Sequence record: OP177727.1
DNA: 64,000 nucleotides
Direction: 5' to 3' (one strand)
Source of the DNA: Escherichia phage pEC-M2929-1AR.1
The position numbers and the translations under genes were made by a program. This document shows positions 49,064 through 63,970 of the stretch, one piece after another (the first letter of the stretch is position 1; the number at the start of each line of letters is the position of its first letter). The notes beneath the pieces are model-generated. The model worked only from the letters and a program-made list of their open reading frames with translations, was not told the origin of the DNA and searched no databases.

Positions 49064-49064
49064 A

Positions 49065-49847: not shown

Positions 49848-49902
49848 ATCACTCTCCTTATTTAACGTGTTTTAGCAATTCAATAAAACATAATCTCTTT
49901 CA

Positions 49903-50487: not shown

Positions 50488-50494
50488 GACCTCT

Positions 50495-50665
50495 CCTTAA
50501 TTGTGAAAAATGTTATCGATCAGTATGACTAGTAGTACGAGGATAGAAGGGAGCAGGAATAGAAATCTTAACATTATGTGACGCGTGTGAGAAGCGGCTT
50601 TAGCTCCAGCCGCCAATAAGCCTACTAGTCCTACAATAAAGAGCAGTTGTTCAGGGACACCCATA
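50495..50665 (-). CDS. small membrane protein (about 56 aa)
   Basis: Hand-translated MGVPEQLLFIVGLVGLLAAGAKAAS...; start overlaps upstream stop; below track cutoff. Confidence 0.35.
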
Positions 50666-50890
50666 TTATGGAACACTTGGATACTCCGTAAGTTTGGCTA
50701 ACAGTTGAATATGTGGACACGTGAATTGTTGTCCTGGGTAGCGTGAGCTAATATCATCCAGCAAGGCAATCACAGCATTGTGCAATGCTTCGTAATCTTC
50801 ATAATACACCATTTCTCCATTAGGATCTTCCACAATATCGCAGTGACAAGCGTGAGCAGTACACGCATCCCATTCCAGACGTTTTACCAT
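50666..50890 (-). CDS. small protein sharing CDIV-DP-G-DY block with 45899-46171
   Basis: ORF track; AAGGAGGATTT RBS. Confidence 0.5.
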   Translation of the reverse strand: MVKRLEWDACTAHACHCDIVEDPNGEMVYYEDYEALHNAVIALLDDISSRYPGQQFTCPHIQLLAKLTEYPSVP

Positions 50891-50899
50891 AAATCCTCC

Positions 50900-51148
50900 T
50901 TACTCATACATTTGATATGATACATAACGATTGCAATCAAGTGCGAGAAACTTTTCAGCATTTCTTTGATGCTTGAACACAATACACTGTTCTTTTTTAG
51001 CTTCACTTTCACGAGCTTCTCTTGCCATATGATCACCTAAACGAATGATACCAGAGAATAACACGTATGCAAGAATAAGACAAACAGAGATTGCACAGAA
51101 AGTTTTAAACTTAACCATTATATTCCTCCATATCACGAATACGATCAA
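50900..51148 (-). CDS. small membrane-anchored protein; paralog of 46823-47047
   Basis: ORF track; N-terminal TM helix and shared C-terminal block. Confidence 0.5.
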   Translation of the reverse strand: MIVFVIWRNIMVKFKTFCAISVCLILAYVLFSGIIRLGDHMAREARESEAKKEQCIVFKHQRNAEKFLALDCNRYVSYQMYE

Positions 51149-51479
51149 TCACCCATTGTACACGTTCTTTGTTAAGGTGTGCAATGCCTAACTCTGTTTC
51201 TGTAAAGTAATGTGAGAAATCTGTATTAAATGGGTGTAAATGGTTCAAACCCGCTTTCTTAAACTGTTCCTTCATTTCCTCTCGTACAGAGGCTTGGAGG
51301 TTTGCTACATTCTCAACGTCTTTTATCCAAGCAATATTGTATAAGAAGTCTACGAGACACGTGCAAAGACCATAATGCTTTTTGCTAAAGTTTGTATCTT
51401 CTTGTTCTAACCACCACTCATAAAATTGTAGCAAATAGGGGCTGCTTTTCATGTTACACACTTTATTATTCTCTTGCAT
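51111..51479 (-). CDS. member 3 of paralogous early-protein family (122 aa)
   Basis: Blocks LLQFYEWW, GLCTCLVDF, HPFNTDF, VQWVIDRI; AAGGAGAG RBS. Confidence 0.55.
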   Translation of the reverse strand: MQENNKVCNMKSSPYLLQFYEWWLEQEDTNFSKKHYGLCTCLVDFLYNIAWIKDVENVANLQASVREEMKEQFKKAGLNHLHPFNTDFSHYFTETELGIAHLNKERVQWVIDRIRDMEEYNG

Positions 51480-51488
51480 GATCTCTCC

Positions 51489-51788
51489 TTAATGCCAGTC
51501 TACGATCACTGAATCTACAAAACCCTCTTTGGTGTTTAAAGCATACACCTTACTAAGTCCACGCTCTCGTAGTGCTTCCATAGCAAGATCAATCAAATCC
51601 ACTTGGCGTTTCTTTGCTTGTTCATTTGTCGGATAGTCATCCAAACCGAAAACAGATGGTTTAAATGCCTTGGAGTATTTGCCAGTTTTTGCCTGATCAT
51701 AACAATCCTGAATAACTTCATCAATAGGAAACCACAAGCCTTCCCCGCTTTGCTTTGCAATACAGCGCAGTTTTTCTGTAACAGTCAT
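51489..51788 (-). CDS. hypothetical protein (99 aa)
   Basis: ORF track; GGAGAGGAAG RBS. Confidence 0.5.
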   Translation of the reverse strand: MTVTEKLRCIAKQSGEGLWFPIDEVIQDCYDQAKTGKYSKAFKPSVFGLDDYPTNEQAKKRQVDLIDLAMEALRERGLSKVYALNTKEGFVDSVIVDWH

Positions 51789-52006
51789 TCTTCCTCTCCT
51801 TTCAATTTACACTCAAAGATACCATTCTTAATGTTATCTGTCAAATAAAGGCTATCTTCTATCTCTTCTTTTGTATACACATAAGCCTCCTTTTCCACGT
51901 CTGTCAGACCTTGCATCGGAGCTAGTAGCCACCAGCCCCGCCAGTCAAACATTGGAGACTTATCAGATACACGAAGAATGTATCTATCATTACACATATT
52001 ATACAA
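51785..52006 (-). CDS. hypothetical protein (73 aa)
   Basis: ORF track. Confidence 0.45.
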   Translation of the reverse strand: MYNMCNDRYILRVSDKSPMFDWRGWWLLAPMQGLTDVEKEAYVYTKEEIEDSLYLTDNIKNGIFECKLKGEEE

Positions 52007-52451
52007 TGTTCACATGAATATCCGCAACACCAATAAGAGAATATACTTCAACTACACTCTGTGTACGATCCAGTTTGTAACGTTTTGCCTCTTTTTCAAC
52101 TTCCTCACGGTAGATGGTTTCCATGATTGGAACTCCGTCCACTACGAGCAGGTATTTCTCTTCATGTTTACTTTTTGGTGCTTCCTCTAATACTTCTACA
52201 AAGTATTCAAACTCAGCTTCTGCAAGTAAGGTGTAACACAGAACAAAGTCTCCTTCATTTTGAGTGATAATTTCTTGTTCTCCTGCTAAGGATTGTAAAG
52301 AAGTTACACCATACCAGGCATCCACATCTAATACACGAAAACAGGAATCACCTAAGAAAGAAGCAATCCTGCTATTGCACTCAGACACATTACCAAACTT
52401 ACGGATATAAGATGCGTTTTTAAAACGATACACTTTACCAATTTCAAACAT
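51999..52451 (-). CDS. hypothetical protein (150 aa)
   Basis: ORF track. Confidence 0.5.
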   Translation of the reverse strand: MFEIGKVYRFKNASYIRKFGNVSECNSRIASFLGDSCFRVLDVDAWYGVTSLQSLAGEQEIITQNEGDFVLCYTLLAEAEFEYFVEVLEEAPKSKHEEKYLLVVDGVPIMETIYREEVEKEAKRYKLDRTQSVVEVYSLIGVADIHVNIV

Positions 52452-52459
52452 TACACAAA

Positions 52460-52639
52460 TCCTTATTGTTCAAGAATAAAAGGAATGATTTCACCATAGC
52501 TGTATTGCATGGCATTCACTTCTGCTTCTGCACGTTGTGCTAGTTCTAATGTTGCACAGATCTTGTAAGGAACAGTGCTGCATTGGCTCCAGCCTGGGGT
52601 ATTCTTTGTTACTAAGTACACAGTAGTTTGTTTATCCAT
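52460..52639 (-). CDS. hypothetical protein (about 59 aa)
   Basis: Hand-translated MDKQTTVYLVTKNTPGWSQCSTVPYKICATLELAQRAEAEVNAMQYSYGEIIPFILEQ; AGAGGAAAAGAAG RBS; below track cutoff. Confidence 0.4.
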
Positions 52640-52654
52640 CTTCTTTTCCTCTCT

Positions 52655-52912
52655 TTAAACAGTATATTCGTGTGGAAGGAAAACATAGTCTTCTCCTTCA
52701 ACAACATCAACCACTTCCCAATTCCAGCCAGGTACTTGGCTCATTGTCTTGAATGACACATAAGCAACTCCGCTGTAAGCTATATCGGCATCCAATATAA
52801 GAGGGAAAGCAACGTGTGTCAACCCCAGATAACCACAATTATTTTCAATACACACCTTAATGCTTTTCATGTTATGCTCCATTAAAGACGGGGCGTGTAG
52901 CATTACGTTCAT
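52655..52912 (-). CDS. hypothetical protein (85 aa)
   Basis: ORF track. Confidence 0.45.
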   Translation of the reverse strand: MNVMLHAPSLMEHNMKSIKVCIENNCGYLGLTHVAFPLILDADIAYSGVAYVSFKTMSQVPGWNWEVVDVVEGEDYVFLPHEYTV

Positions 52913-53189
52913 CGTTCACTGTAATAAGGTTTTTCATAACCATAACACCCTGAATATAGCCTAGCCAGCGATGGCGTTTGGTTTCAGACATACCATTACA
53001 CCCATCCTGAATTTCACTCAACATCCACAGTAAGTGGGAAGCACCTGTTTCACTAGTATCTGGATCTTCTACAGAGCTAAGAATTGTTTCATAGCGTTCA
53101 CAAATTTCTGGGTAGAATTCATAATCCTGTTCTACATCTCGCATTTCTCGAATGGAGTGACGATCAATATACAAAGCTAAGGTTTTCAT
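52872..53189 (-). CDS. hypothetical protein (105 aa)
   Basis: ORF track. Confidence 0.45.
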   Translation of the reverse strand: MKTLALYIDRHSIREMRDVEQDYEFYPEICERYETILSSVEDPDTSETGASHLLWMLSEIQDGCNGMSETKRHRWLGYIQGVMVMKNLITVNDERNATRPVFNGA

Positions 53190-53259
53190 TTACACCTCTC
53201 ATTAGTAGTTTGTTATGCGCGGTATTGCATATCTTATGGAACACAGTGTACAGACATTT

Positions 53260-53634
53260 CTACTCAATGCAAGCATTATTTGCATCTTCGATTCTGTCTT
53301 TCACCCATTGAAGACGTAATGTGTTGGTATGACATGCCAAGTCTATACACTCTGAAAGGTAATCCATGTAATCTGTATTGAACGGAAGATAGTAGTCCAG
53401 CCCTGCACATTCAAACTGTTTCCTCATTTCGTATTTCAAACTATCCAACAAACGATCACGCCATCTTCTATCTTCTTCTCTAGTTATCTCACCAACAAAA
53501 TCATCTACATAATCTACCAGACAAACACATAAGCCACTCGTTGTGCGATTCATTGCAGGATGGTTGGCAATCCATGCTTTATAGAATCGTATTAAAGCTG
53601 CACTACTCAACGGAATATTACTTTTCATTATCAC
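53260..53634 (-). CDS. member 2 of paralogous early-protein family (124 aa)
   Basis: Blocks LIRFYKAW, GLCVCLVDY, LPFNTDY, LQWVKDRI. Confidence 0.55.
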   Translation of the reverse strand: MIMKSNIPLSSAALIRFYKAWIANHPAMNRTTSGLCVCLVDYVDDFVGEITREEDRRWRDRLLDSLKYEMRKQFECAGLDYYLPFNTDYMDYLSECIDLACHTNTLRLQWVKDRIEDANNACIE

Positions 53635-53800
53635 CTCCCAACTTAAGTATTCTACCTAACAGATAAAATAATGCCTGTATTGCACTAAGGAACATACACA
53701 AAATTATAAGAAGTCCGAAACCAACAAAACCTGCTTTTATCATTAACCAAACTATCCCAATCAATTCCAACATTCTACACATCCTTACATGCATCGGCAA
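53618..53800 (-). CDS. small membrane protein (about 60 aa)
   Basis: ORF track; hydrophobic helices IGIVWLMIKAGFVGFGLLIILCMFL. Confidence 0.4.
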   Translation of the reverse strand: MPMHVRMCRMLELIGIVWLMIKAGFVGFGLLIILCMFLSAIQALFYLLGRILKLGGDNEK

Positions 53801-54191
53801 TACGATCTTTCACCCACTGCAATCTCTTTGGGTTGGTATGGCAAGAATGTGTCTTACCTTCATCTTCATAACACAGAAGATCATAATTAAAGGGTAGGAA
53901 GGAGGATAACCCAGCACACGTGAATTGCAATTTCATCTCTTCCAGCGTTTTGCTACGAACCATTTTGAAATGTTCTATATCTTCTTGCGTAGGTTTTTTC
54001 TTTGACATAGTGGTTGCCAGGTAATCCATAAGGCAATTACACAAACCAACATTCTCACGATGCATTGAGGAATGATCTTCCATCCATGCTTTGTAAAATT
54101 CTAACAGCAGTGGACTGCTAAGAGGAACACACATATCAGACTCCTTTATAAATTTACGTTTCATGCCACACATCATATAGCATCTTTTCAT
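53775..54191 (-). CDS. member 1 of paralogous early-protein family
   Basis: Blocks LLEFYKAW, GLCNCLMDY, LPFNYDL, LQWVKDRI; exact start uncertain (several in-frame Met). Confidence 0.5.
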   Translation of the reverse strand: MKRCYMMCGMKRKFIKESDMCVPLSSPLLLEFYKAWMEDHSSMHRENVGLCNCLMDYLATTMSKKKPTQEDIEHFKMVRSKTLEEMKLQFTCAGLSSFLPFNYDLLCYEDEGKTHSCHTNPKRLQWVKDRIADACKDV

Positions 54192-54710: not shown

Positions 54711-54783
54711 ATACTTTCTATACTATAAAACGCCCTAAAAATCAAGATAATTCTAATTTATTGCGCTTTTAAAAAAGTAGGCT

Positions 54784-54871
54784 CAACAAATAGCAATAGT
54801 TAGGGCAACAAATAACAACAAATAGGCTATAACTATACTCAACAAATAGGGAGGTACATTGCAACAAATAG
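54784..54871 (+). repeat. iteron-like direct repeats, five copies of CAACAAATAG/A
   Basis: Copies at 54784, 54807, 54817, 54840, 54862; spacings 23, 10, 23, 22 bp. Confidence 0.7.
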
Positions 54872-54942
54872 GGATAGTATTGTGGCAATAGTATGAAAAA
54901 CCATCTATTCATATATAAATAATTTTGCGCAATAATGGTAAT

Positions 54943-55000
54943 ATTTTTCTTGACAAGAAAGATTTCTTTGTGTTCACATAGCGCCCCCTGGAAGGTGGCG
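54943..55000 (+). promoter_or_regulatory. plus-strand promoter-like element (TTGACA) followed by GC hairpin, pointing into the non-coding region
   Basis: TTGACA at 54943-54948, then TCACATAG and hairpin GCGCC-N11-GGCGC; same architecture as the minus-strand early modules but opposite orientation and no obvious downstream gene. Confidence 0.3.
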
Positions 55001-55299
55001 CATTATGATCATCAGGGTCATTATTCACTATGTTTATTATTGGATAGCTTATATTATAGCCAATGTTCCAAACATTAGCTAATAATAACGCACCGCAACA
55101 ATGTAAGGGAATACAATATACCATGTATATTGTTGCGCTTGCAGTTGTTGCAAGCTACATAAGCACAAATAATAACTATCGGTGATGGTTATTATGTGAG
55201 GTGTGTAGTTGCGTTATTATTAGCCGCCTATGTGTCCGGCATAGGCTGCTAATGATACGTTTGCGAATTATATTTCTTGTTATAGTTATTGTATGAAAT

Positions 55300-55620
55300 G
55301 ATTACGGTATGAAATGATTATTTAGGTAATAGATAGTAAGGTAAAGATTAGATCATAAATAGATAGGATATTAATTATTTAGTAATGTTACTAACGATTT
55401 AATAGTTACTTTGTGCAATAATTTAATAGATTATAGTTATAGTTTTAAAGGTTAGATAGATTATATTTAGCTTAGTAATGATTTATATTAGTTATTGTTG
55501 TTTAATATAAGGTTATCAATGAGATAGTAACAGTAAGTTATAAATAAAAGTAAGATAATTAGTTTTAATTTAGTTAGATAACTTATTATTTTATAGGTTA
55601 GATGGTCTTAAGTTAAGAAT
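55300..55620 (+). repeat. cytosine-depleted, AT-rich low-complexity tract (TAGATA/TTAGTA-rich)
   Basis: Plus strand almost devoid of C over about 320 bp; strong strand asymmetry. Confidence 0.6.
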
Positions 55621-55643
55621 GATTATCATTATTGCATTATTCA
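55618..55643. promoter_or_regulatory. Fur-box-like palindrome (GAATGATTATCATTATTGCATTATTC)
   Basis: Core AATGATTATCATTATT close to the Fur consensus core; a weaker copy lies at about 55675-55692. Confidence 0.4.
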
Positions 55644-55893
55644 GTTTATTGCATAAATAATCAGCTATAAATGAGAATGATTATTATTTAAGAGGAAAGA
55701 TAAGAAAAAGGCTGTTTTTGCCAGATAGTTACATGGAGAAATTAAAAATAAGCGGTCTAAAACACGTTGTAAGCGCCTTATGATCTTCATGGTATGGTTA
55801 TTCATCTGCTCCTTGATTAGCTCGATACCGCGATCTATTCACTTTTTTCGGTGAACGTTTTTGATAGGTAAAAGCTATCATCTTTATTGAGGT

Positions 55894-55923
55894 AAAAAGA
55901 AAGGGCGCTTATTGCGCCCTTGT
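55894..55923 (-). terminator. intrinsic terminator for minus-strand gene 55936-56319
   Basis: Minus strand GGGCGCAATAAGCGCCC followed by TTTCTTTTT. Confidence 0.65.
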
Positions 55924-55935: not shown

Positions 55936-56319
55936 TTACTGATAAGCTGGATCGTTTGTTATATCAATCCAATGAGTTAAATTAATTTTATTTTTTGCTT
56001 TCATTTTCTCGATCAACCGTTCGGCTAATGTTTCGGAACGAATATAAACATAATCGCTAAAATCTTGCCCCGTTTCTTCGTCGATCATTTCGCGATATTC
56101 AATTTTCCCGATAAACGCGTGATTCAGCGCATAAGTTTTACCCGTGTACCAGTTATGTAAATGGATCTCGCATTTATAATCGTCGCTATAACCTTCGGTT
56201 GTTCTAACTTCAACCAGATCGCCTTTAAACACTGATAAGCACCACATAGGATCACGATCTACAGCGCCGTTAAAGTCTTTACCGTTTACAGTAGCCGCCA
56301 GGTTGATGATATTGCTCAT
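55936..56319 (-). CDS. hypothetical protein
   Basis: Track ORF 55936-56394 trimmed to ATG at 56319 after AAACGAGGAATCACC; the upstream track portion overlaps the promoter. Confidence 0.5.
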   Translation of the reverse strand: MSNIINLAATVNGKDFNGAVDRDPMWCLSVFKGDLVEVRTTEGYSDDYKCEIHLHNWYTGKTYALNHAFIGKIEYREMIDEETGQDFSDYVYIRSETLAERLIEKMKAKNKINLTHWIDITNDPAYQ

Positions 56320-56342
56320 GGTGATTCCTCGTTTACCGTTTA

Positions 56343-56410
56343 AAATGATTTGCCCTACGTGATACATCTTATTATAAGGGCGATCCGGTGTCAATAGGTA
56401 GAATTGTAAA
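56343..56410 (-). promoter_or_regulatory. early promoter module, hairpin-less variant (TTGACA-N17-TAAGAT, then GTATCACGTAGGGC)
   Basis: Minus-strand TTGACA at 56404-56409, conserved initial transcribed motif TATCACGTAGGGC. Confidence 0.5.
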
Positions 56411-56740
56411 GATTTGATAGTTTATTCCTTTGATGTTTTGTTGTTTGATAGTTATTAGCTATCAATATATAGCGGGGTCGTCCGGTGATTATCTTCCCCT
56501 GTCCCCCAGGTGCCGCCCGTTCCATAATAATAATCAAAAGCAGAATAAAAGGCAAGATAAAAAGCAAATTATTTCCTATGTGCTTTAAACGCTCTAAACA
56601 GCTTTATAACAGCTTTTTCATCCTGGCAAGGTGATTAGTCATTATTACCTTGTTTAAGCGGTTATAATCGGTTTTAGGCTGTTTTACGCCACCTTTACGC
56701 CTATTCTTTACGTGTTGTTTCCATCGTGAAAAAAGAATAC

Positions 56741-56772
56741 AAAAAAGGGCGCTTAGTGCGCCCCTTTCTTTT
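56741..56772. terminator. bidirectional intrinsic terminator (AAAAAAGGGCGCTTAGTGCGCCCCTTTCTTTT)
   Basis: GC stem flanked by A-run and T-run, downstream of 56781 gene on minus strand. Confidence 0.7.
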
Positions 56773-56780
56773 ACCGTGTA

Positions 56781-57170
56781 TTAATATTCGTTATAATACA
56801 TCGCTAACTTTTCATCAAAAGCCGATTGACGATCAGCATACTCCCAAAACATTTCCTGATCCTGTTGTTCGTCATCGTCCATCATATTAAATTGCGCAAC
56901 CTCCTGGTAAGTGATCGCCATATTATAACGATAGGTGATCTCTTCTGCGATGTTTTCCGGTAAAAATGATTCTACACTGTCTAACAGCATATGTAACATC
57001 ATTTCAGCCGCTTTTTCATCATTGTCAAAGCAGTAAGCAGACCATGCCGCATGATGTTTATTTTTCATCTTTGCAATCAAGCCATTGACTAAAAAAGGCG
57101 CTACGTTGTTAACGATACCCTGTAAAGATTGGAATTTTTCAACGTTAGAAACAGAAACCAGGTTGCGCAT
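56781..57170 (-). CDS. hypothetical acidic protein
   Basis: Track ORF 56781-57206 trimmed to ATG at 57170 (AAAGGTAAATACT upstream); the track start lies inside the promoter hairpin. Confidence 0.5.
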   Translation of the reverse strand: MRNLVSVSNVEKFQSLQGIVNNVAPFLVNGLIAKMKNKHHAAWSAYCFDNDEKAAEMMLHMLLDSVESFLPENIAEEITYRYNMAITYQEVAQFNMMDDDEQQDQEMFWEYADRQSAFDEKLAMYYNEY

Positions 57171-57193
57171 AGTATTTACCTTTTTGATTACCT

Positions 57194-57251
57194 GGCGGGA
57201 AACCATTTCCCGCCTACGTGGTAAATAATACCATATTGGGGATCGGTGTCA
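57194..57251 (-). promoter_or_regulatory. early promoter plus hairpin module (TTGACA-N16-TATTAT, hairpin GGCGGGAAATGGTTTCCCGCC)
   Basis: Minus-strand -35 TTGACA (57246-57251), -10 TATTAT, conserved TTACCACGTAG, perfect 9-bp-stem palindrome 57194-57214 just before the RBS. Confidence 0.6.
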
Positions 57252-57258
57252 ATACTTT

Positions 57259-57645
57259 TTATTCAATATAAATCAAATTATCTTCACCAATGTAAGCCGA
57301 CACGTCCGGCATGACCTCGGCGGCACTGGTTAGGCGGTTCGCCGTGTTAGGGGTATATATTTCAGGGCGATCCCAAAAACCAACGCCGTGACCGTTACGG
57401 GTAAAATGTAAATCATTCCCGATCTGGTTTGCTGTTGCGCCGTCGCTCATTGCCTCAGAGATAGCCGCATCATTGGCATCACAATAAGCCGCTACGTCAT
57501 GAATGATCCGCTGATGGGCTTGATCTGAAAAATCATAATCGCCTAGATTCTCAATATATTCCCCATTGTGATCCGTCGCTGGTTCGGCAAAAATAAAGGC
57601 TTCTTTATAGCCGTTGATGATTTCAATAATGATTTCTGTTTTCAT
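57259..57645 (-). CDS. hypothetical protein (128 aa)
   Basis: ORF track; noticeably GC-richer coding sequence than most of window. Confidence 0.5.
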   Translation of the reverse strand: MKTEIIIEIINGYKEAFIFAEPATDHNGEYIENLGDYDFSDQAHQRIIHDVAAYCDANDAAISEAMSDGATANQIGNDLHFTRNGHGVGFWDRPEIYTPNTANRLTSAAEVMPDVSAYIGEDNLIYIE

Positions 57646-57875
57646 GCTGTACGCTCAACAATGATAATGGTTTGCGGGATCTCGTTTTCTGCAACTATCA
57701 AGGCTTTTTTCTGTGTGATAGATATTTTAACACGTTGTAAAGTAGCGGTGAAATCTTTCATTTCGTCACGTGGTGTTTTAGTGCAATACCAGATCTCAGG
57801 CTTGCCGATCTGCAAGTTACGTAAAAATTCCGTTTTACCTGTTTTGTTCGTGATCATTTGTTTCACCTTATCCAA
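57642..57875 (-). CDS. hypothetical protein (77 aa)
   Basis: ORF track; ATGA overlap with downstream gene. Confidence 0.45.
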   Translation of the reverse strand: MDKVKQMITNKTGKTEFLRNLQIGKPEIWYCTKTPRDEMKDFTATLQRVKISITQKKALIVAENEIPQTIIIVERTA

Positions 57876-57989
57876 TACCGTGGGAAGATAGAATCATGTT
57901 AGCCATAGTTGCAATCACTCCAACCGATAACGCCAGGCCCACTATTACAACCGTGAAAATTTTCTCTAACATGATGCTACCCTCATTAG

Positions 57990-58052
57990 TGGGCGTTGCC
58001 TTATTGCCCCCGCCCTATGTGATACATATTATCAGCTTATTAGCCGTTGTCA
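57990..58052 (-). promoter_or_regulatory. early promoter plus hairpin module (variant hairpin GGGCGGGGGCAATAAGGCAACGCCC)
   Basis: Minus-strand TTGACA (58047-58052), -10 TAATAT, GTATCACATAG, GC hairpin, then a short hydrophobic ORF. Confidence 0.5.
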
Positions 58053-58177
58053 ATTACTTTTTTAAACTTCTTTCAAAGAGAAGATCATCGATCTCAGAAA
58101 CAATAAGCGTTATCAAAGGAATAATAACCGCCGCGCACATCATGGTAAGAATAATCATTTTAGTTCTCTCTATTCTG

Positions 58178-58236
58178 GCGGGAAACCATTTCCCGCCCTA
58201 CGTGGTACACTTTACCAGATAACCGCATATTGTCAA
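58178..58236 (-). promoter_or_regulatory. early promoter plus hairpin module (TTGACA-N16-TAAAGT, hairpin GGCGGGAAATGGTTTCCCGCC)
   Basis: Minus-strand TTGACA (58231-58236), TAAAGT, GTACCACGTAG, identical hairpin to other modules. Confidence 0.6.
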
Positions 58237-58237
58237 A

Positions 58238-58432
58238 CTATTTTTTACAAGGGATCAGTAAACTTCTCGCTACTGCTTCACGAAAACCTTTACTTTTTAT
58301 TAGATCTATTGTTGCAGGGTGACAAGTAAAAGCCTTTGACCATTTTTGATCACCTGGTTTACGGGCGAAAATGTATACTTCCCCGTCAATTTCATCCCAA
58401 CGAGTATTGCTTGTTAGTTTTTTAAGCGCCAT
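58238..58432 (-). CDS. hypothetical protein
   Basis: Track ORF 58238-58480 trimmed to ATG at 58432 after AAAAGAGAAATCATC; the track N-terminus overlaps the promoter hairpin. Confidence 0.5.
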   Translation of the reverse strand: MALKKLTSNTRWDEIDGEVYIFARKPGDQKWSKAFTCHPATIDLIKSKGFREAVARSLLIPCKK

Positions 58433-58453
58433 GATGATTTCTCTTTTAGTTGT

Positions 58454-58511
58454 GAGCGGCACTATTGCCGCCCTACGCAATACATTCTACCCTATTTATA
58501 ATTATTGTCAA
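58454..58511 (-). promoter_or_regulatory. early promoter plus hairpin module (TTGACA-N17-TAGAAT, hairpin GCGGCAATAGTGCCGC)
   Basis: Minus-strand TTGACA (58506-58511), TAGAAT, GTATTGCGTAG, hairpin variant shared with the 62262 module. Confidence 0.55.
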
Positions 58512-58512
58512 A

Positions 58513-58782
58513 CTATTTTTTCAAGCTCGACCAGTCAAAACACGGCGGGATCTCGTTAAAACTTGTGCCCTGTAAAGCACATAATTTTTTAGCAATAGCC
58601 GCCGTGACCTGGCGCTGTACGCGCGGATCTGCTACTGATTGGAGAAAGTAGGCGGCTTTATATGTGATCATGCTTTCGCCTGTTTCCTTGCTAACATGAT
58701 GCACTATTTTAGCCTTATCATCTTTTACCAGGGTGTAACCGGATTCGATGGCCTTGATTGCAACGTCCAATGATATTTTCAT
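58513..58782 (-). CDS. hypothetical protein (89 aa)
   Basis: ORF track. Confidence 0.5.
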   Translation of the reverse strand: MKISLDVAIKAIESGYTLVKDDKAKIVHHVSKETGESMITYKAAYFLQSVADPRVQRQVTAAIAKKLCALQGTSFNEIPPCFDWSSLKK

Positions 58783-58801
58783 GATTTATCTCTTTATTGA
58801 T

Positions 58802-58822
58802 GGCGGGGAATACTCCCCCGCC
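58802..58822 (-). promoter_or_regulatory. stand-alone intergenic hairpin (GGCGGGGGAGTATTCCCCGCC) without an adjacent promoter
   Basis: Perfect palindrome between the stop of the 58829-58999 gene and the RBS of 58513-58782; upstream sequence is coding, no TTGACA. Confidence 0.5.
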
Positions 58823-58828
58823 TTATTA

Positions 58829-58999
58829 ATTACTCTTCATCGTCGCCGTTGTAGTATTCAATGCCGTTTTCATCGGTTACGGTAATATTAACGCCACCGA
58901 TAGCAACACGATCACGGGCAAATGTCATGGCTTCATTTAAATCTTCAGACCAAAAAATATTGTGACCTTTGCGCGATACGTAAAACATAGTTGGGATCA
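58829..58999 (-). CDS. small hypothetical protein (about 56 aa)
   Basis: Hand-translated MIPTMFYVSRKGHNIFWSEDLNEAMTFARDRVAIGGVNITVTDENGIEYYNGDDEE; below track cutoff. Confidence 0.4.
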
Positions 59000-59021
59000 T
59001 GATTTGTTTCTCTTCTGCTGT

Positions 59022-59083
59022 GAGCGGGAAACCATTTCCCGCCCTATGTGATAAACTTTACTACGTTGTTTGCCTACTGTCAA
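59022..59083 (-). promoter_or_regulatory. early promoter plus hairpin module (TTGACA-N17-TAAAGT, hairpin GGGCGGGAAATGGTTTCCCGC)
   Basis: Minus-strand TTGACA (59078-59083), TAAAGT, TTATCACATAG, hairpin. Confidence 0.6.
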
Positions 59084-59084
59084 A

Positions 59085-59369
59085 TTATTTTTTAATGTTT
59101 TGCCCTACAAAATTGATCACTTCCTTAAGCTGTTTCTCAGTCATGATCGTGCCTGGTAATTCTTGTTTTATTTCTTCCGGCAAATAGATATTACCGCGCC
59201 AGGTTAATAAACAACCGTTTTGATCTTCGCAGATAGAATAAGAGAAGATCCACTCATTATCATTCTCAAGCTCCCAAAAGCACAAAAAATCTTCTTTCCC
59301 TAAGTTTTCAACGGTTAAGCATAAGCCGCGACGTGCTGCATAGTTGGAAAGTGCTTTTGTGATCTTCAT
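59085..59369 (-). CDS. hypothetical protein (94 aa)
   Basis: ORF track. Confidence 0.5.
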   Translation of the reverse strand: MKITKALSNYAARRGLCLTVENLGKEDFLCFWELENDNEWIFSYSICEDQNGCLLTWRGNIYLPEEIKQELPGTIMTEKQLKEVINFVGQNIKK

Positions 59370-59388
59370 ATCTTATCTCTTCTGTTAA

Positions 59389-59451
59389 GGCGGGGAAACC
59401 ATTTCCCCGCTCTATGAGATACAATATATTACTTATCAGGTGTGCTGTCAA
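59389..59451 (-). promoter_or_regulatory. early promoter plus hairpin module (hairpin GCGGGGAAATGGTTTCCCCGCC)
   Basis: Minus-strand TTGACA (59446-59451), conserved CATAGAG motif, hairpin variant with one extra G-C pair. Confidence 0.55.
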
Positions 59452-59775
59452 TCAATAATCTTTAATATTTTCTACATTTACAAAAGTGAGTTTATTTTCT
59501 AAGTTTTCGCCGTACCATTGCCCCATGTTGATTTCTGCGGTGCGCAACCAGGACATGCCGCGTTCTATCTTTTTGCTTGCAATGTCGATCCGGCTTTTAC
59601 ATAGTGCTTTAGCTTGCAATGTAAAAACACTATTGCCCTGTAATGCTTCCAGGTCATCATGTGCAAGGCGATACTCTTTAAAGCCTGATTCTATCATTTC
59701 AATCGCATCAAGTAAACGCGCACGATGATAGAAAAAATCAGAGTTATCCAAATAAACACCGATCACAGATTTCAT
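59452..59775 (-). CDS. hypothetical protein
   Basis: Track ORF 59452-59835 trimmed to ATG at 59775 after AAAAGGGTAAAATT; promoter TTGACA-N16-TAAAAT at about 59825-59857. Confidence 0.5.
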   Translation of the reverse strand: MKSVIGVYLDNSDFFYHRARLLDAIEMIESGFKEYRLAHDDLEALQGNSVFTLQAKALCKSRIDIASKKIERGMSWLRTAEINMGQWYGENLENKLTFVNVENIKDY

Positions 59776-60104
59776 AATTTTACCCTTTTGTTTGCGGCCT
59801 TTGCCGTTTTCAAGATATATTTTAAAGCATAACAAAAAATTGTCAAGCCTTTAAAGCGTACAACTATAAAACCTATTAAAACACAGTGTATAATAACATG
59901 GCTATAGTGGCAATACAACATAAAGCCATGCTTGTTTTCCTTCCTTCCTCATATGCTGGATTTATTACGCTATACTGTACGGGAATAATTTTCATGCTGT
60001 TTCCTTAATGTTTTAAAACGTGGTTTACAATAGAAACAAGCATACAGAAGAAAAAAGATCCTGTCAATAAGATCCCGAAAAATAAATGTAAATAGGGCAT
60101 GGTT

Positions 60105-60407
60105 TTACTCCTTAAAAAAATCATTGACAATTAAACTGATAACGCCCAGCACCAGATCACCAGGTAGCGCCGCGCTTTCGTTGTTGCTTGTTTGCACTTC
60201 CTCACTAGTATCAGCATTATAGATCGCATGGTAAGCAATAGTATAATAACCTTTTGTTATTTCTTTAAGATTAATGATTAGCACGTTATTTGTTTCATCT
60301 TGAAATAATTTAGCGGTGATAGTATTGTTTTCTTTTACACTATCGACTTTTATTGATGGATCATTTACACCAGAAAAAAGAAAAAACGTTTTAGCTATGC
60401 CGTTCAT
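60105..60407 (-). CDS. hypothetical protein (100 aa)
   Basis: ORF track; AAAGGAGAACCAC RBS; own TTGACA-N17-TAAGAT promoter at about 60425-60458. Confidence 0.55.
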   Translation of the reverse strand: MNGIAKTFFLFSGVNDPSIKVDSVKENNTITAKLFQDETNNVLIINLKEITKGYYTIAYHAIYNADTSEEVQTSNNESAALPGDLVLGVISLIVNDFFKE

Positions 60408-60454
60408 GTGGTTCTCCTTTGTTGTGTGTATCTTATAACGTGCTTTCTATATTG

Positions 60455-60856
60455 TCAATCTTTTATCTCGGTACATTTTGCTAGGGTATACGTTGCAAGT
60501 GCTGACACTAGTTTTTCATTGCTACGATCTGCGGCGGTGCTGTGTACCTTTTGAATACTTTTTAACCACGGTGTAAAATTTTGAGTCGTTAGCACACTGG
60601 TAATAATTTCACATGGTACATCTTCATTTAAGCCATTAACAATAGATTTATCTATTTTTGCCGTTAATTGTGTAACAGCACCATAAGCGATCATGTGTGA
60701 ATCCTCCATGATTTCATCGGGGATCGCGTTATTAATGATCATGACGTTTTCCATTGCATCAACGGCGCTTAATTCTGCTACTGTGGAGGATATCGCCGCG
60801 CTAGATGTTCCAACCATGCCAAAAGAGATTAAACCAGCGATCAATAATTTTTTCAT
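60455..60856 (-). CDS. secreted or periplasmic protein with N-terminal signal peptide
   Basis: Track ORF trimmed to MKKLLIAGLISFGMVGTSSAA start at 60856; signal-peptide-like N-terminus. Confidence 0.5.
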   Translation of the reverse strand: MKKLLIAGLISFGMVGTSSAAISSTVAELSAVDAMENVMIINNAIPDEIMEDSHMIAYGAVTQLTAKIDKSIVNGLNEDVPCEIITSVLTTQNFTPWLKSIQKVHSTAADRSNEKLVSALATYTLAKCTEIKD

Positions 60857-60864
60857 TTCTTGCC

Positions 60865-61107
60865 TCATATATGTTTTATTGAGATTATATTGTCACTATA
60901 TACAACGTTTTTCAACGTGTCAATAAAAATTTTATTGCCTTCAATCCCCAGGATCACGCCGCTAGTTATAAAGCCATATTGATCACGATATCGGGCGCAT
61001 AACCTTTGCCCCTGGGCTAGTGCCTTGCTTATTTCGTCTAATTTCATTTTTAAAGCTCCTGTAAAGCTGTCTAACGTTGATTTATAGGCTTGCCCTGGCG
61101 TTACCAT
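60865..61107 (-). CDS. hypothetical protein (80 aa)
   Basis: ORF track. Confidence 0.45.
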   Translation of the reverse strand: MVTPGQAYKSTLDSFTGALKMKLDEISKALAQGQRLCARYRDQYGFITSGVILGIEGNKIFIDTLKNVVYSDNIISIKHI

Positions 61108-61137
61108 TGCCTATGGGTAACAAGCCTCTATATAAGC

Positions 61138-61166
61138 TAAAAGGGCGCTTATTGCGCCCTTTTTGT
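61138..61166. terminator. bidirectional intrinsic terminator (AAAAGGGCGCTTATTGCGCCCTTTTTG)
   Basis: GC stem flanked by A-run and T-run, immediately after stop of small basic gene. Confidence 0.7.
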
Positions 61167-61303
61167 TATTCGTTCCAGTGTCTTTTTGTGCTGCGATCTC
61201 TCTTTGTTTTGTTCCGCTTGTCGCCTTTCTTGGTGATCTCTTCGTTCCAATCTTTACGCGCTTTGTTGCGGTTGAATTTTTCGATCTGCTGTGATGCGTT
61301 CAT
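61166..61303 (-). CDS. small highly basic protein (45 aa)
   Basis: Hand-translated MNASQQIEKFNRNKARKDWNEEITKKGDKRNKTKRDRSTKRHWNE; AAGAGGAAAAAC RBS; terminator directly downstream; below track cutoff. Confidence 0.5.
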   Translation of the reverse strand: MNASQQIEKFNRNKARKDWNEEITKKGDKRNKTKRDRSTKRHWNE

Positions 61304-61317
61304 GTTTTTCCTCTTAA

Positions 61318-61677
61318 TTACGCTACGTTATGATATTTTGCCAAAGTTACGATCATGCTTGCAATATATAACCAATAATTTTCCCGCTCACGGGTAACGG
61401 TTGTTTCTTTGCTTGTTTCTTTTATGTACTTCCATTCAATTAATAATTGATCGATCTCGTTATAATTAAAAGCGATATTGATATCTGACGGTAAACCTTG
61501 TAACCAGCTTTTGACACCTTGTACCATGTTGTTATTATAACGATCACGATTAGATTGATACCAGTATTCAGAATTAAAACGGCGCATCAGTTCGGTGATT
61601 TTTTCTTTTTCGGTTGTAGTACCATCAAAAGAAATAGCCGACAAAATGTAAGTTTTAATTGCTTTTGCTGATTTCAT
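61318..61677 (-). CDS. hypothetical protein (119 aa)
   Basis: ORF track; AAAGAGATAAGATT upstream of ATG. Confidence 0.55.
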   Translation of the reverse strand: MKSAKAIKTYILSAISFDGTTTEKEKITELMRRFNSEYWYQSNRDRYNNNMVQGVKSWLQGLPSDINIAFNYNEIDQLLIEWKYIKETSKETTVTRERENYWLYIASMIVTLAKYHNVA

Positions 61678-61697
61678 AATCTTATCTCTTTATTGAT

Positions 61698-61756
61698 GGC
61701 GGGAAACCATTTCCCGCCGTTGTTGTTACTTTACTTATAAATGATGCTACTGTCAA
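61698..61756 (-). promoter_or_regulatory. early promoter plus hairpin module (TTGACA-N17-TAAAGT, hairpin GGCGGGAAATGGTTTCCCGCC)
   Basis: Minus-strand TTGACA (61751-61756), TAAAGT, hairpin 61698-61718 directly upstream of the RBS of 61318-61677. Confidence 0.6.
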
Positions 61757-61770
61757 GCGAATATTATTTA

Positions 61771-61935
61771 TTTTTTAACGTTAATGTTCCCAGCTTATCA
61801 GCGTGACGCAGACCAGGAAAGATCCATTTTCCTGATTCATCTTTCACCGGGGCTTTAAGCGTAGCGCCCAGGTTGGCGGCGTTAACTTTACGTGCAACGT
61901 TGCGAGCGGCTTCACGGGTGGCGAAAGTGATCATG
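61771..61935 (-). CDS. small GC-rich hypothetical protein (about 54 aa)
   Basis: Hand-translated MITFATREAARNVARKVNAANLGATLKAPVKDESGKWIFPGLRHADKLGTLTLKNK; AGAGGAAACATC RBS; below track cutoff. Confidence 0.4.
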
Positions 61936-62024
61936 ATGTTTCCTCTTCTCTTTGTTAGGCGGTGGGCTATTCCACCGCCTTAATGAATATAGTTTACTTT
62001 ATTTTACCAGGTTTGCAAGTAGTT

Positions 62025-62240
62025 TTATGAAATAATTGTCAAAGTAAAATCATAATCTTTTGACAATTTATATTGCACCTTGTTACCGTATATGTCACCT
62101 TTACGTAAAGATCCACGGATACCGATAACATCCTTCACGTCTTTTAAATTTTTCACGCCTGTAATGTCTTTGTTGAAATACTCGTCATCTGAAAATAAAA
62201 CTTGACTTGCATTTTTTAACAGTGTGCGGATATTAGCCAT
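62025..62240 (-). CDS. hypothetical protein
   Basis: Track ORF 62025-62288 trimmed to ATG at 62240; the track N-terminus overlaps the promoter hairpin. Confidence 0.5.
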   Translation of the reverse strand: MANIRTLLKNASQVLFSDDEYFNKDITGVKNLKDVKDVIGIRGSLRKGDIYGNKVQYKLSKDYDFTLTIIS

Positions 62241-62261
62241 TTTGATAATCTCTCTCACTAG

Positions 62262-62319
62262 GGGCGGCACTATTGCCGCCCTATGCATTACATTTTACTG
62301 ATTTTAGTTATCTTGTCAA
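62262..62319 (-). promoter_or_regulatory. early promoter plus hairpin module (TTGACA-N17-TAAAAT, hairpin GGCGGCAATAGTGCCGCC)
   Basis: Minus-strand TTGACA (62314-62319), TAAAAT, GTAATGCATAG, hairpin variant. Confidence 0.6.
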
Positions 62320-62327
62320 TATTATTT

Positions 62328-62555
62328 TTAGTTTAATTGATCCAGGCACAACAAGCGATCAACATTTAGATCGGTTAGGCTAATCGTTGGCACCTGGTAG
62401 GATTCGATGTACTCAACGCTCGACCATTGCCCAAAGTTAGCGACCGCCCAGCTATTCAAGGAGGAGTGAAGATCATCCCCTTTCTTCTCGGTGATAACTG
62501 CTACTACCTGGGAGATCCCAACCGTACCGGATACGCGAACAATAACGATAGCCAT
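62328..62555 (-). CDS. hypothetical protein (75 aa)
   Basis: ORF track. Confidence 0.5.
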   Translation of the reverse strand: MAIVIVRVSGTVGISQVVAVITEKKGDDLHSSLNSWAVANFGQWSSVEYIESYQVPTISLTDLNVDRLLCLDQLN

Positions 62556-62578
62556 AATGTTAACCTTTCTTTGATTTG

Positions 62579-62637
62579 GCGGGAAACCATTTCCCGCCCT
62601 ATGTGATACACTTTACCAGATTAAAAAACGTTGTCAA
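62579..62637 (-). promoter_or_regulatory. early promoter plus hairpin module (TTGACA-N16-TAAAGT, hairpin GGCGGGAAATGGTTTCCCGCC)
   Basis: Minus-strand TTGACA (62632-62637), TAAAGT, GTATCACATAG, hairpin 62579-62599. Confidence 0.6.
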
Positions 62638-62646
62638 CTGCTTTTA

Positions 62647-62886
62647 TTACATTCCTACCATAGCGGCGCGGATACTGGTTTTGCTGAATTTATAGCCATC
62701 TGGCGTAGTATTTTGGCCCATTTCGTTAAGTAGTGACATCATTTCACGCGCGGCGTTATCTTTATTGTTGTTCACGGCTATAAATTCTTTTGCCATATTA
62801 TAAAAACCTGGATCGTTATTAATCCAAAGGCTTACATTCCAATGAGTTTTATTTTTGTGACCGTTGTACATTTTAGATTTAGCCAT
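62647..62886 (-). CDS. hypothetical protein (79 aa)
   Basis: ORF track. Confidence 0.5.
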   Translation of the reverse strand: MAKSKMYNGHKNKTHWNVSLWINNDPGFYNMAKEFIAVNNNKDNAAREMMSLLNEMGQNTTPDGYKFSKTSIRAAMVGM

Positions 62887-62908
62887 GATTTTTCTCTCTT
62901 TTTCAGTG

Positions 62909-62969
62909 AGGCGGGAAGTGTTCCCGCTCTCTATGTAATATAGTTTACTCTTTTTATTCGTGCTGTCAA
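62909..62969 (-). promoter_or_regulatory. early promoter plus hairpin module (hairpin GCGGGAACACTTCCCGC)
   Basis: Minus-strand TTGACA (62964-62969), TTACATAGAG, hairpin variant. Confidence 0.55.
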
Positions 62970-62975
62970 TGCTTT

Positions 62976-63341
62976 TTATAAATCTTTTTTACGTTTTACA
63001 TCGCTCGCATGACTGTATACAGCGATCCCATTATCACGGCAAAAACGGGAAAGGTAGGCATAATTTGAAAATTCTTTACCTTCCAGGTTGATAACCTTGC
63101 TAAATTCTTCCAGGGCGACGGTATCAAAATGATCACCATAGCCATATTGAAACGGAACGTTAACCACTTCGATCAGTTTACCGCCGATCTCAACGTCAAC
63201 CATCAAAGAGAAATAAGTATTACCATAAGACTTTTGAAACCAGCGACGGGCGCTAATATGTACCGCTTCAATGCTGGATAGTTCAATTTTAGCAGTGTTA
63301 GCTAGGGTAGCATAAGCAGAAACATTGATATTTTTAGCCAT
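62976..63341 (-). CDS. hypothetical protein (121 aa)
   Basis: ORF track. Confidence 0.5.
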   Translation of the reverse strand: MAKNINVSAYATLANTAKIELSSIEAVHISARRWFQKSYGNTYFSLMVDVEIGGKLIEVVNVPFQYGYGDHFDTVALEEFSKVINLEGKEFSNYAYLSRFCRDNGIAVYSHASDVKRKKDL

Positions 63342-63428
63342 GATTTTATTCCTTAGTAACGCTTTAATTTATATAAGCATTATAGCTTACTGATTTCAGG
63401 TGTCAAGTGATTTTTTATTTCACTTTAT

Positions 63429-63484
63429 GGGGCGTTGCCCCGTTCTATGTGGTATATATTACGGTGCTTGTTTGCATATGTCAA
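63429..63484 (-). promoter_or_regulatory. early promoter plus hairpin module (short hairpin GGGGCAACGCCCC)
   Basis: Minus-strand TTGACA (63479-63484), ACCACATAGAACGGGGCAACGCCCC. Confidence 0.5.
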
Positions 63485-63487
63485 ACC

Positions 63488-63970
63488 TTACACAATGCAA
63501 TTTTCATAATTTTTTAAGGCTTGTCTTTTTTCCTCTTCCGTCGGCATGTATGGCTGGATCTCTTCCTCTTCCAGGGTAGGCATGATTTCTTCCTCTTCCT
63601 CCTGGTCGCCCTGGTCTTCCTCTTGCGCTATGGTAACAAGTTTATTGATCTTCTCCTGGGCTTTAATTAGTTTTGCATCTAGCACCATTTTAGCGGTGTT
63701 GTATACAGTCCATGCCATGCGCTTTTCTGCGTATGCCTTATCTAGTGCGGCTAATTTAGCGGGATACTCTTCCAACACCTTAAAAGCCGGATCAATGCTG
63801 TACAAGGGATTATTTTTAGCGTCATCGCTTGGATCTGCGGCGCTTGCAATGTCAGCGTTACCATTCGCCAGCCATCCAGGGCGAACGGATCTCGTCCTGG
63901 TGTTGCCGTTGCTCTTTGCCGCTCGATTTCCTATCTGCTCCCCGCTATACCCTACCATGTGATCGATCAT
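63488..63970 (-). CDS. hypothetical protein with acidic EEEE-rich N-terminal region and basic C-terminus
   Basis: ORF track; start may be internal. Confidence 0.45.
   Translation of the reverse strand: MIDHMVGYSGEQIGNRAAKSNGNTRTRSVRPGWLANGNADIASAADPSDDAKNNPLYSIDPAFKVLEEYPAKLAALDKAYAEKRMAWTVYNTAKMVLDAKLIKAQEKINKLVTIAQEEDQGDQEEEEEIMPTLEEEEIQPYMPTEEEKRQALKNYENCIV

Follow-up and report, generated by a model that had tools for sequence, protein, structure and literature searches.

Early promoter and stem-loop cassettes of a Justusliebigvirus phage resemble the promoter-early stem-loops of T4-type phages, with the stem-loop placed within the predicted 5' end of the mRNA

Background

Promoter-early stem-loop (PeSL) cassettes are known from the T4-type phages RB49/phi1, PST/T4 and nt-1/KVP40, where the stem-loop is found ahead of the promoter in PST and nt-1, and either between the -35 and -10 elements or overlapping them in RB49, and since it stands before the start of its own transcript it acts only on incoming ones (PMC2839356; PMC4122927). 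In these phages the stem-loop has been assigned a terminator function, and the units are reported to form excised mini-circles. Here we describe a family of comparable units in a 64,000-nucleotide stretch of Escherichia phage pEC-M2929-1AR.1 (OP177727.1; the whole stretch is called the window below), in which an early promoter is followed by a GC-rich hairpin, a ribosome binding site (RBS) and the start codon of a small gene. An earlier note on this DNA had claimed at least twelve near-identical promoter and hairpin modules upstream of small minus-strand genes, and had offered three roles for the hairpin, namely a 5' stabiliser of the mRNA, a processing or antitermination signal, and an operator for a dimeric regulator.

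A second group of comparable structures consists of the 5'-terminal stem-loops that reportedly stabilise the E. coli ompA and papA mRNAs and that of T7 gene 10, the names attached to this work being Emory, Bouvet and Belasco 1992, Bouvet and Belasco 1992, and Mertens et al. 1996. The first of these studies is said to have found that an E. coli mRNA is stabilised by a stem-loop within 2-4 nt of its 5' end, whatever the sequence of the stem. The units described here are best filed as a variant of the PeSL kind in which the stem-loop has moved into the 5' end of the mRNA, and with moderate confidence we read them as mobile cassettes for early expression, with a stem-loop that is transcribed to give a 5'-terminal hairpin and probably serves as a stabiliser or insulator of the message.

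Results and discussion

The cassette family

A Megablast search with positions 56300-63500 matched 275 phage records, the top match being Escherichia phage vB_EcoM_AMO3598 (PQ226818) with a full-length identity of 97.5%. The matched phages are members of Justusliebigvirus (phi92-like) and Phapecoctavirus (phAPEC8-like), genera of the subfamily Stephanstirmvirinae, and judged by these matches the window phage is a phi92-like Justusliebigvirus. The alignments of the relatives to the cassette region are broken into 2-9 pieces.

The minus strand between 56300 and 64000 carries a series of small genes, most of which have the cassette layout upstream. Promoter and hairpin scans together with a dissection of each unit gave twelve minus-strand promoter-plus-hairpin units between 57168 and 63484 (Table 1), so the count in the earlier note was right. 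The order of the parts is TTGACA, 16-17 nt, TAnnnT, YCAYRTAG, GC-rich hairpin, purine-rich RBS and ATG, which takes up 81-87 bp (about 85 bp) from the -35 hexamer to the start codon and is preceded by an AT-rich lead-in. In eleven units the TTGACA is perfect and is separated by 16-17 nt from a TAnnnT, which gives a match to 10-11 of the 12 consensus positions; the remaining unit has TTGCAA. The composite pattern TTGACA-N16/17-TANNNT-N7-14-GCGG was found ten times, always on the minus strand and from 57210 to 62969, where the computed expectation was 0.02. Minus-strand sites matching at least 10 of the 12 consensus positions numbered 19 (18 with a perfect TTGACA), and the plus strand had two, one of them with TTGACA.

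The palindrome reported earlier as recurrent is indeed repeated, the exact 21-mer GGCGGGAAATGGTTTCCCGCC being present in four copies and in a fifth with one mismatch, and shuffled sequences gave none. To call the units near-identical was nevertheless an overstatement: their promoter spacers are unrelated, at least five stem variants occur in the window (GGCGGGAAA, GGGCGGCA, AGGCGGTGG, GCGGGAA and ACGGGGC), and the hairpin of the unit at 58053 is degenerate. A hairpin without a promoter, said in the earlier note to lie between two genes, is present at 58802-58822. The plus-strand copy facing the non-coding region stood up only in part, for its TTGACA, CACATAG and imperfect hairpin are recognisable but there is no usable -10, and the distance from the -35 to the motif is about 7 nt too short. 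The note had missed the degraded state of this copy, as well as the match to the PeSL class and the part played by the cassettes as crossover points in gene gain and loss.

The copies all sit together in one block of about 8-10 kb. The PQ226818 record ends at the equivalent of position 64000 of the window, and PQ226818 holds three further copies just past the record junction, which brings the family to about 16 members in one block adjoining a large AT-rich non-coding region; no additional family copies were found in parts 1-50000 and 100000-145425 of PQ226818. Of ten cargo proteins tested, nine had matches only to PHROGs of unknown function and the tenth had none, and Rfam has no family for the cassettes.

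Table 1. Positions of the cassettes and associated elements in the window. In the twelve numbered units the -35 hexamer starts at the higher coordinate. Promoters are given as -35, spacer length (nt) and -10; energies are in kcal/mol.
Feature	Position	Strand	Promoter	Leader motif	Hairpin or structure	Start codon
Cassette 1, orphan	63427..63484	-	-35 63484-63479, -10 63461-63456	CACATAG	short, 63443-63427	
Cassette 2	62884..62969	-	TTGACA-16-TAAACT	TACATAG	62931-62908 (core GCGGGAAcacTTCCCGC)	ATG 62886
Cassette 3	62553..62637	-	TTGACA-16-TAAAGT	CACATAG	62598-62578 (GGCGGGAAAtggTTTCCCGCC, -15.4)	ATG 62555
Cassette 4	62238..62319	-	TTGACA-16-TAAAAT	TGCATA	62281-62262 (GGGCGGCAatagTGCCGCCC)	ATG 62240
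Cassette 5	61932..62018	-	TTGCAA-16-TAAACT		61980-61957 (AGGCGGTGGaatagcCCACCGCCT, -18.7)	ATG 61934
Cassette 6	61675..61756	-	TTGACA-17-TAAAGT	AACAACAAC in place of CAYRTAG	61718-61698	ATG 61677
Cassette 7	59367..59451	-	TTGACA-17-TATATT	CTCATAG	59410-59390 (GCGGGGAAAtggTTTCCCCGC)	ATG 59369
Cassette 8	58998..59083	-	TTGACA-17-TAAAGT	CACATA	59044-59022 (GGGCGGGAAAtggTTTCCCGCTC, one G.U pair)	ATG 59000
Promoter-less half cassette, with RBS	58780..58822	-			58822-58802 (GGCGGGGGAgtaTTCCCCGCC, one G.U pair, -17.4), begins 7 nt past upstream stop codon	ATG 58782
Cassette 9	58430..58511	-	TTGACA-16-TAGAAT	TGCGTA	58473-58454 (GGGCGGCAatagTGCCGCTC, G.U pair)	ATG 58432
Cassette 10	58156..58236	-	TTGACA-16-TAAAGT	CACGTAG	58197-58177	ATG 58158 (34-aa gene)
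Cassette 11	57970..58053	-	TTGACA-16-TAATAT	CACATAG	degenerate, 58015-57991 (GGGCG...CGCCC, 5 bp, 15-nt loop)	ATG 57972
Cassette 12	57168..57252	-	TTGACA-16-TATTAT	CACGTA	57214-57194	ATG 57170
Intrinsic terminator closing the cassette block	56741..56769	-			12-bp stem, then T-run	
Hairpin-less promoter, beyond the block-closing terminator	56317..56394	-	TTGACA-17-TAAGAT	CACGTAG		ATG 56319
Degraded plus-strand cassette	54950..55001	+	TTGACA 54950-54955, TTCACA for -10	CACATAG 54975-54981	imperfect, 54981-55001 (-12.9)	
Structured non-coding element, about 175 nt	55078-55250	+			by fold and covariation	

Placement of the hairpin and covariation of its stem

The geometry of the units was measured on 77 distinct cassettes from about 12 phages. 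The hairpin starts 10-11 nt past the -10 in 53 of the 77 and 9-12 nt past it in 67 (10 nt in 35, 11 nt in 18, 9 nt in 8 and 12 nt in 6), and because of the 10-11 nt spacing it is predicted to stand at about +4 of the cassette's own transcript. With +1 at the 6th to 8th nt past the -10, 3-6 nt of leader would precede the hairpin, and the conserved TCACATAG has an A following a C at the 6th and the 8th positions. The stems have 7-10 bp and the folding energies run from -15 to -19 kcal/mol. The 3' end of the hairpin lies 18-22 nt before the ATG, and the AAGAGA-type purine-rich ribosome site is predicted to be unpaired.

The stems covary. With a common alignment of the copies, a comparison that the earlier note had proposed, a hand-specified ten-pair helix and 500 shuffles, 44 cells were changed on both sides as against 21.9 +/- 3.5 in the shuffled sets, none of which reached 44, and the signal was lost when the pairing partners were slid. 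Individual pairs of this alignment form the series GC 34 / CG 15, AU 35 / GC 12 and GC 33 / GU 20 / AU 7. In register-free counts the pairs were nearly all Watson-Crick, with several pair types at most positions. RNAalifold predicted no structure on a MAFFT alignment of 74 cassettes, because stems of unequal length fall out of register in it. The stems have diverged fully between Stephanstirmvirinae and Vequintavirinae while placement and stability were kept, so that selection appears to act on structure and placement and not on sequence identity; the compensatory changes argue, at the level of sequence, for selection on pairing within a single strand. As to whether that strand is RNA, in 43 of 65 hairpins the better fold is that of the sense strand (Wilcoxon p = 0.011, with sequences that are related and not independent), and G.U as against A.C on the sense strand comes to about 7 versus 3 independent events, an asymmetry that is suggestive of RNA over DNA folding, not decisive.

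The same stems bear on the dimeric operator of the earlier note, in which a regulator would bind the palindrome as duplex DNA over +1 to +25 and shut off the early promoters. An inverted repeat does lie directly downstream of the predicted +1, and a GCGG...CCGC core is common to most Stephanstirmvirinae copies. The half-sites, however, vary within one genome (GGCGGGAAA, GGGCGGCA, GGCGGTGG, GCGGGAA, ACGGGGC), the spacing of the GCGG-CCGC core ranges over 8-12 nt and puts half-sites on different faces of the helix, the rV5-like stems GGGGAGAA or GGGGGAA are without the core, and the changes are compensatory, not conservative. Such an operator is thus highly improbable, and we rejected it on account of the variability of the half-sites; what fits best among the roles put forward in the earlier note is a transcribed structure that stabilises the message.

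Two processing or antitermination signals were also considered and rejected. RNase III sites of the T7 type need roughly 20 bp or more of (interrupted) duplex, and the stems here have only 7-10 bp. Lambda-type nut sites consist of a conserved linear boxA and a boxB hairpin with a conserved loop, one or two per operon, whereas the cassettes number twelve or more, one per gene, and have loops of variable length and sequence; no N-like protein was looked for.

Terminators, promoters and the public annotation

The cassette hairpins share with intrinsic terminators an intergenic, GC-rich stem of 7-10 bp and a loop of 3-6 nt, but differ in having no U-tract and in lying inside the 5' untranslated region of the downstream gene. 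None of them was listed by a terminator scan of the sense strand, where A- and G-rich sequence follows the hairpins, and the same scan lists genuine terminators at 56769-56741 and 55921-55901; the earlier note's remark that these palindromes are not classic terminators therefore holds for every cassette. The stem-loops could even so act as terminators or attenuators that stop read-through and leave each small gene to be expressed from its own promoter only. The stem-loop of an RB49 PeSL lowered the expression of lacZ to the same degree as the rrnB T1 terminator (PMC2839356), the programs WebGeSTer, TransTermHP and ARNold call the homologues rho-independent terminators in the records of ASO2A, Paula and Alma, and two plus-strand promoters of the window, at 15407 and 18941, overlap terminator-like hairpins with 0-1 nt between -10 and hairpin. 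Against this, several of the Paula annotations sit on the strand opposite to the genes, genuine T-run terminators exist at the ends of the block, and a hairpin 10-11 nt past the -10 would equally stop the transcripts of its own promoter, which would defeat the purpose. Given the missing U-tract and the downstream position, the terminator function of the PeSL fits poorly, and we regard it as unlikely here.

The two plus-strand promoters just mentioned are part of a set of promoter-hairpin-Shine-Dalgarno arrangements outside the early block (15377-15430, 18912-18960, 21111-21169, 32762-32833 and 40680-40745). At 15407, where T-runs are present, and at 18941 the hairpin follows the -10 directly, so that the promoter's own transcript would be without the 5' arm, which is the classical PeSL overlap of promoter and terminator. 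At 21151 the hairpin begins 11 nt past the -10, as in the early cassettes, with an unrelated stem. The contrast with 15407 and 18941 supports a deliberate placement of the hairpin inside the transcript in the early cassettes.

A different label is used in the phAPEC8 RefSeq record NC_020079, which annotates 20-mers homologous to the window hairpins (e.g. GTAGGGCGGCAATGGTGCCG) as "putative promoter determined with PHIRE". These are repeated hairpins downstream of sigma-70 promoters and not promoters themselves, and the annotation reflects the output of a repeat-finding program, not an experiment. A literature search found no paper discussing these hairpins.

Spread of the layout among relatives

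The search in related phages, likewise proposed in the earlier note, found the same layout in Phapecoctavirus (phAPEC8, Klebsiella phage ZCKP1 and ASO2A), in Justusliebigvirus (Paula and three IMG/VR contigs), in Citrobacter phage Tr1 and Klebsiella phage FKP3, and in two rV5-like Vequintavirinae, A73 and Alma. The stems of these relatives differ (GGGGAGAA/TTCTCCCC, GGGGGAA/TTCCCCC, GGGGCAAG/TTTGCCCC, CGGGGGAA/TTCCCCCG), and all are complementary and placed in the same way. In FKP3 the cassette hairpins are present and the leader motif is poorly conserved. A scan of IMG/VR for the exact hairpin returned three loci only.

Cassettes as sites of recombination

When the block was compared by BLAST with eight relatives, the breaks of homology clustered at the cassettes, and most of the others fell at cassette edges. 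Junctions lie at 62645, 61768/61718, 58503, 58192, 58035 and 57202, of which the one at 58035, in cassette 11, recurs in four relatives. The clearest case concerns the 34-aa gene (58158-58054) that lies in the window between the cassettes at 58236 and 58053. This gene is missing from Paula, which has at its site a hybrid cassette whose promoter half is that of the 58236 unit and whose hairpin half is that of the 58053 unit, with the crossover within CAYRTAGGGCGG. The same hybrid event is seen in the IMG/VR relative L006, where two genes are missing. Cassette 1 stands without a gene, the gene starting at 63341 being driven by a second, hairpin-less consensus promoter (63406-63379), and Paula has an extra gene at the position of cassette 1. 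Across genomes, an identical promoter half is joined to different hairpins and genes.

Since the cassettes follow one another head to tail, genes and promoter halves are added, removed and newly combined through homologous recombination from one cassette to another, and the cassettes are crossover points for gene gain and loss among related phages. The hairpins themselves may also be rearranged: that of cassette 5 (61957-61980, AGGCGGTGGaatagcCCACCGCCT) is found as its exact reverse complement (AGGCGGTGGGctatTCCACCGCCT) at 664-687 of L006, a DNA-level flip of loop and upper stem such as intrastrand template switching produces.

These events raise the question of whether the hairpin has any role in expression, or is a palindromic unit that spreads and is homogenised by recombination or gene conversion, in a selfish or neutral concerted evolution, or one that itself promotes recombination. 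The crossovers inside the CAYRTAG-GGCGG segment, the re-assortment of promoter and hairpin halves and the loop flip, which is typical of hairpin dynamics at the DNA level, all agree with such an origin. It would leave unexplained why stems that have diverged between subfamilies kept their stability and their position relative to both -10 and ATG, and why the compensatory series pass through G.U intermediates, and we think it quite improbable.

Comparison with PeSL and with 5'-stabilising stem-loops

The units share with the PeSL an AT-rich lead-in, a near-consensus sigma-70 early promoter, a GC-rich stem-loop and a 3' Shine-Dalgarno sequence with ATG. As in the PeSL, they recur in a hypervariable region ahead of small genes whose function is unknown, and the junctions of indels and replacements between close relatives fall inside the units. 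The degraded plus-strand copy resembles the "half PeSLs" of Comeau et al. 2014 (PMC4122927). The differences are that the host here is a myovirus of the Stephanstirmvirinae and not T4-like, that the hairpin is found 10-11 nt past the -10 and thus, by the predicted start, within the cassette's own mRNA, and that the T-run is absent, the stem family is another one and a conserved YCAYRTAG start region has been added.

With the ompA, papA and T7 gene 10 leaders the cassettes have in common a stable hairpin a few nt from the (here predicted) 5' end, followed by an unstructured ribosome site. In ompA and T7 gene 10, as here, stems may differ in sequence provided that they pair, and the many unrelated stems of the cassettes are all complementary; the likeness to T7 extends to the location of the hairpin within the conserved initial transcribed sequence of a class of phage promoters. 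They differ from ompA and T7 gene 10 in belonging to a repeated, recombining cassette read by the host RNA polymerase, and in a predicted leader of 3-6 nt that is at or past the protective limit of about 2-4 nt.

Proposed role of the transcribed hairpin

In the mechanism that we propose, the near-consensus sigma-70 promoter would be read by the unmodified host RNA polymerase directly after infection, with the AT-rich lead-in holding the stop codon of the upstream gene and YCAYRTAG forming the conserved start region. Each early mRNA would start with a hairpin of -15 to -19 kcal/mol about 4 nt past the predicted start, which would end at the 5' edge of the RBS and would be followed by some 20 nt of unpaired, purine-rich ribosome site and the ATG of the small gene. 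A hairpin so placed would make the 5' end of the mRNA less accessible to RppH and RNase E and would keep the ribosome site clear of upstream pairing, and on read-through transcripts and in the promoter-less copy it could block 3' exonucleases. E. coli RppH is said to require unpaired 5' nucleotides. For the B. subtilis enzyme this requirement has been stated (PMC3997798).

A motive for such protection may come from the phage itself. In T4, the Srd protein is reported to stimulate RNase E, and an activity of this type would give a phage reason to protect its own early mRNAs. A Srd-like gene was noted in rV5 in the paper on that phage.

Several points weigh against a stabilising 5' hairpin. Both +1 and, with it, the leader length of 3-6 nt are predicted from the -10 alone, and a leader of 3-4 nt is already at the reported limit of protection. 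RNase E, once loaded on a single-stranded 5' end, scans past an internal stem-loop (PMC9943677), and protection would therefore hinge on the exact start site. The hairpin at 58822-58802 has no promoter, so that a 5'-terminal position is not obligatory, and the terminator-like activity of the RB49 PeSL (PMC2839356) makes some attenuation possible. The evidence from strand asymmetry is weak, with few G.U and A.C events and a folding test dominated by one hairpin lineage, and the loops are not random, AATGG and AATAG being recurrent, which hints at recent common descent or at recognition by a factor. Finally, our literature search found no start-site, transcriptome, half-life or binding data for Justusliebigvirus, Phapecoctavirus or rV5-like phages.

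The recurrent loops lead to another explanation, in which the hairpin and its CAYRTAG leader form an RNA element recognised by a protein, of the phage or of the host, that controls the immediate-early set post-transcriptionally; such a protein might, for example, repress translation, cut the messages as a shut-off nuclease or work in antitermination. Semi-conservation of the loop and the upper end of the stem (GAA-ATGG/ATAG/TAG-TTC) extends over stem variants and genera, the leader motif, which is single-stranded, is kept in spite of unrelated promoter spacers, and hairpin and ribosome site are retained without a promoter at 58822-58782. Within a single genome, however, the loops range from 3 to 7 nt and include TGG, ATAG, CAC, GTA, AATAGC and CAA, one hairpin is reverse-complemented in a relative, the FKP3 hairpins go with a poorly conserved leader motif, and there is no candidate protein among the ten early proteins tested, nine of which belong to families of unknown function and one of which is unmatched. 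Recognition of this kind seems to us doubtful. Its broadest form, in which the YCAYRTAG leader and a hairpin with a GAA-AT(A/G)G-TTC top would be a shared RNA tag by which one phage factor recognises all immediate-early mRNAs, is likewise a tentative idea that we hold improbable; the factor would protect the early mRNAs during an accelerated decay of host mRNA, or would silence them at the switch from early to middle expression.

Other features of the window

Within the cassette block, a sub-block on the minus strand (59846-61163), bounded by a terminator-like hairpin at 61163-61139, has consensus promoters at 60923, 60458, 60067 and 59846 without the family hairpin and encodes proteins with hydrophobic N-termini; it looks like a separately acquired insert. 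Across the non-coding region lies a second block of small minus-strand genes (42595-54191) with TTGACA-17 promoters at 52822, 51844, 49967 and 47104 and no family hairpins, so the hairpin cassettes mark only one of the two small-gene blocks. The minus strand also carries a tRNA cluster at 281-3157 with 16 tRNA genes, three of them for tRNA-Met.

Downstream of the degraded plus-strand cassette, the plus strand at 54972-55262 folds at -105.6 kcal/mol as compared with -74.4 +/- 5 for shuffled sequences (z = -6.25), and contains the structured element of Table 1, whose core is kept in 132 phage records across Stephanstirmvirinae. A consensus from nine sequences (Justusliebigvirus, Phapecoctavirus, Tr1, FKP3 and two IMG/VR contigs) has five helices with 54 pairs, 14 of them with compensatory double changes, and 99.6% of its cells are paired, which none of 500 shuffles matched. 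Owing to invariant G.U pairs, the plus strand folds 18 kcal/mol better than the minus strand in alignments of seven sequences made for both strands. Rfam gave no match for the element, and no convincing promoter was found upstream of it in either genus. It is a candidate for a new non-coding RNA or a replication-origin structure.

We also considered whether the element is antisense to the cassette leader (CCUAUGUG versus CACAUAGG). The duplexes always anchor there, but their energies lie mostly within 1-3 standard deviations of shuffled sequences, and in FKP3 the element reads CCUACGUUU and the cassette leaders do not match it, so the idea was dropped as unsupported.

Just upstream of the degraded plus-strand cassette are five iterons of the CAACAAATAG type (54773-54878, plus strand) at a spacing of 22-34 nt, and related phages have GTGCTCAACA iterons at the equivalent place, each followed by a small GC hairpin. 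Together with an extremely AT-rich stretch at 55300-55900, these iterons look like an origin or regulatory region.

Implications

The cassettes carry the promoter-plus-stem-loop arrangement beyond the T4-type phages into the phi92/phAPEC8 and rV5 groups, whose members are widely isolated for use in phage therapy, and they do so in a version where the stem-loop is, by the predicted start, built into the 5' end of the mRNA instead of acting on incoming transcripts. They explain where genes are gained and lost within the most variable region of these genomes, correct database labels that contradict each other (phage promoters in one RefSeq record, terminators in others), and provide a simple rule for spotting immediate-early genes in these genomes. 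As compact, strong and naturally insulated units they may also be of use for expression in E. coli. A shared RNA tag, if true, would amount to a post-transcriptional regulon of a type undescribed for Stephanstirmvirinae plus Vequintavirinae. If the hairpins protect the early mRNAs, as we propose, they would show mRNA stability to be built into the promoters of a phage on a genome-wide scale.

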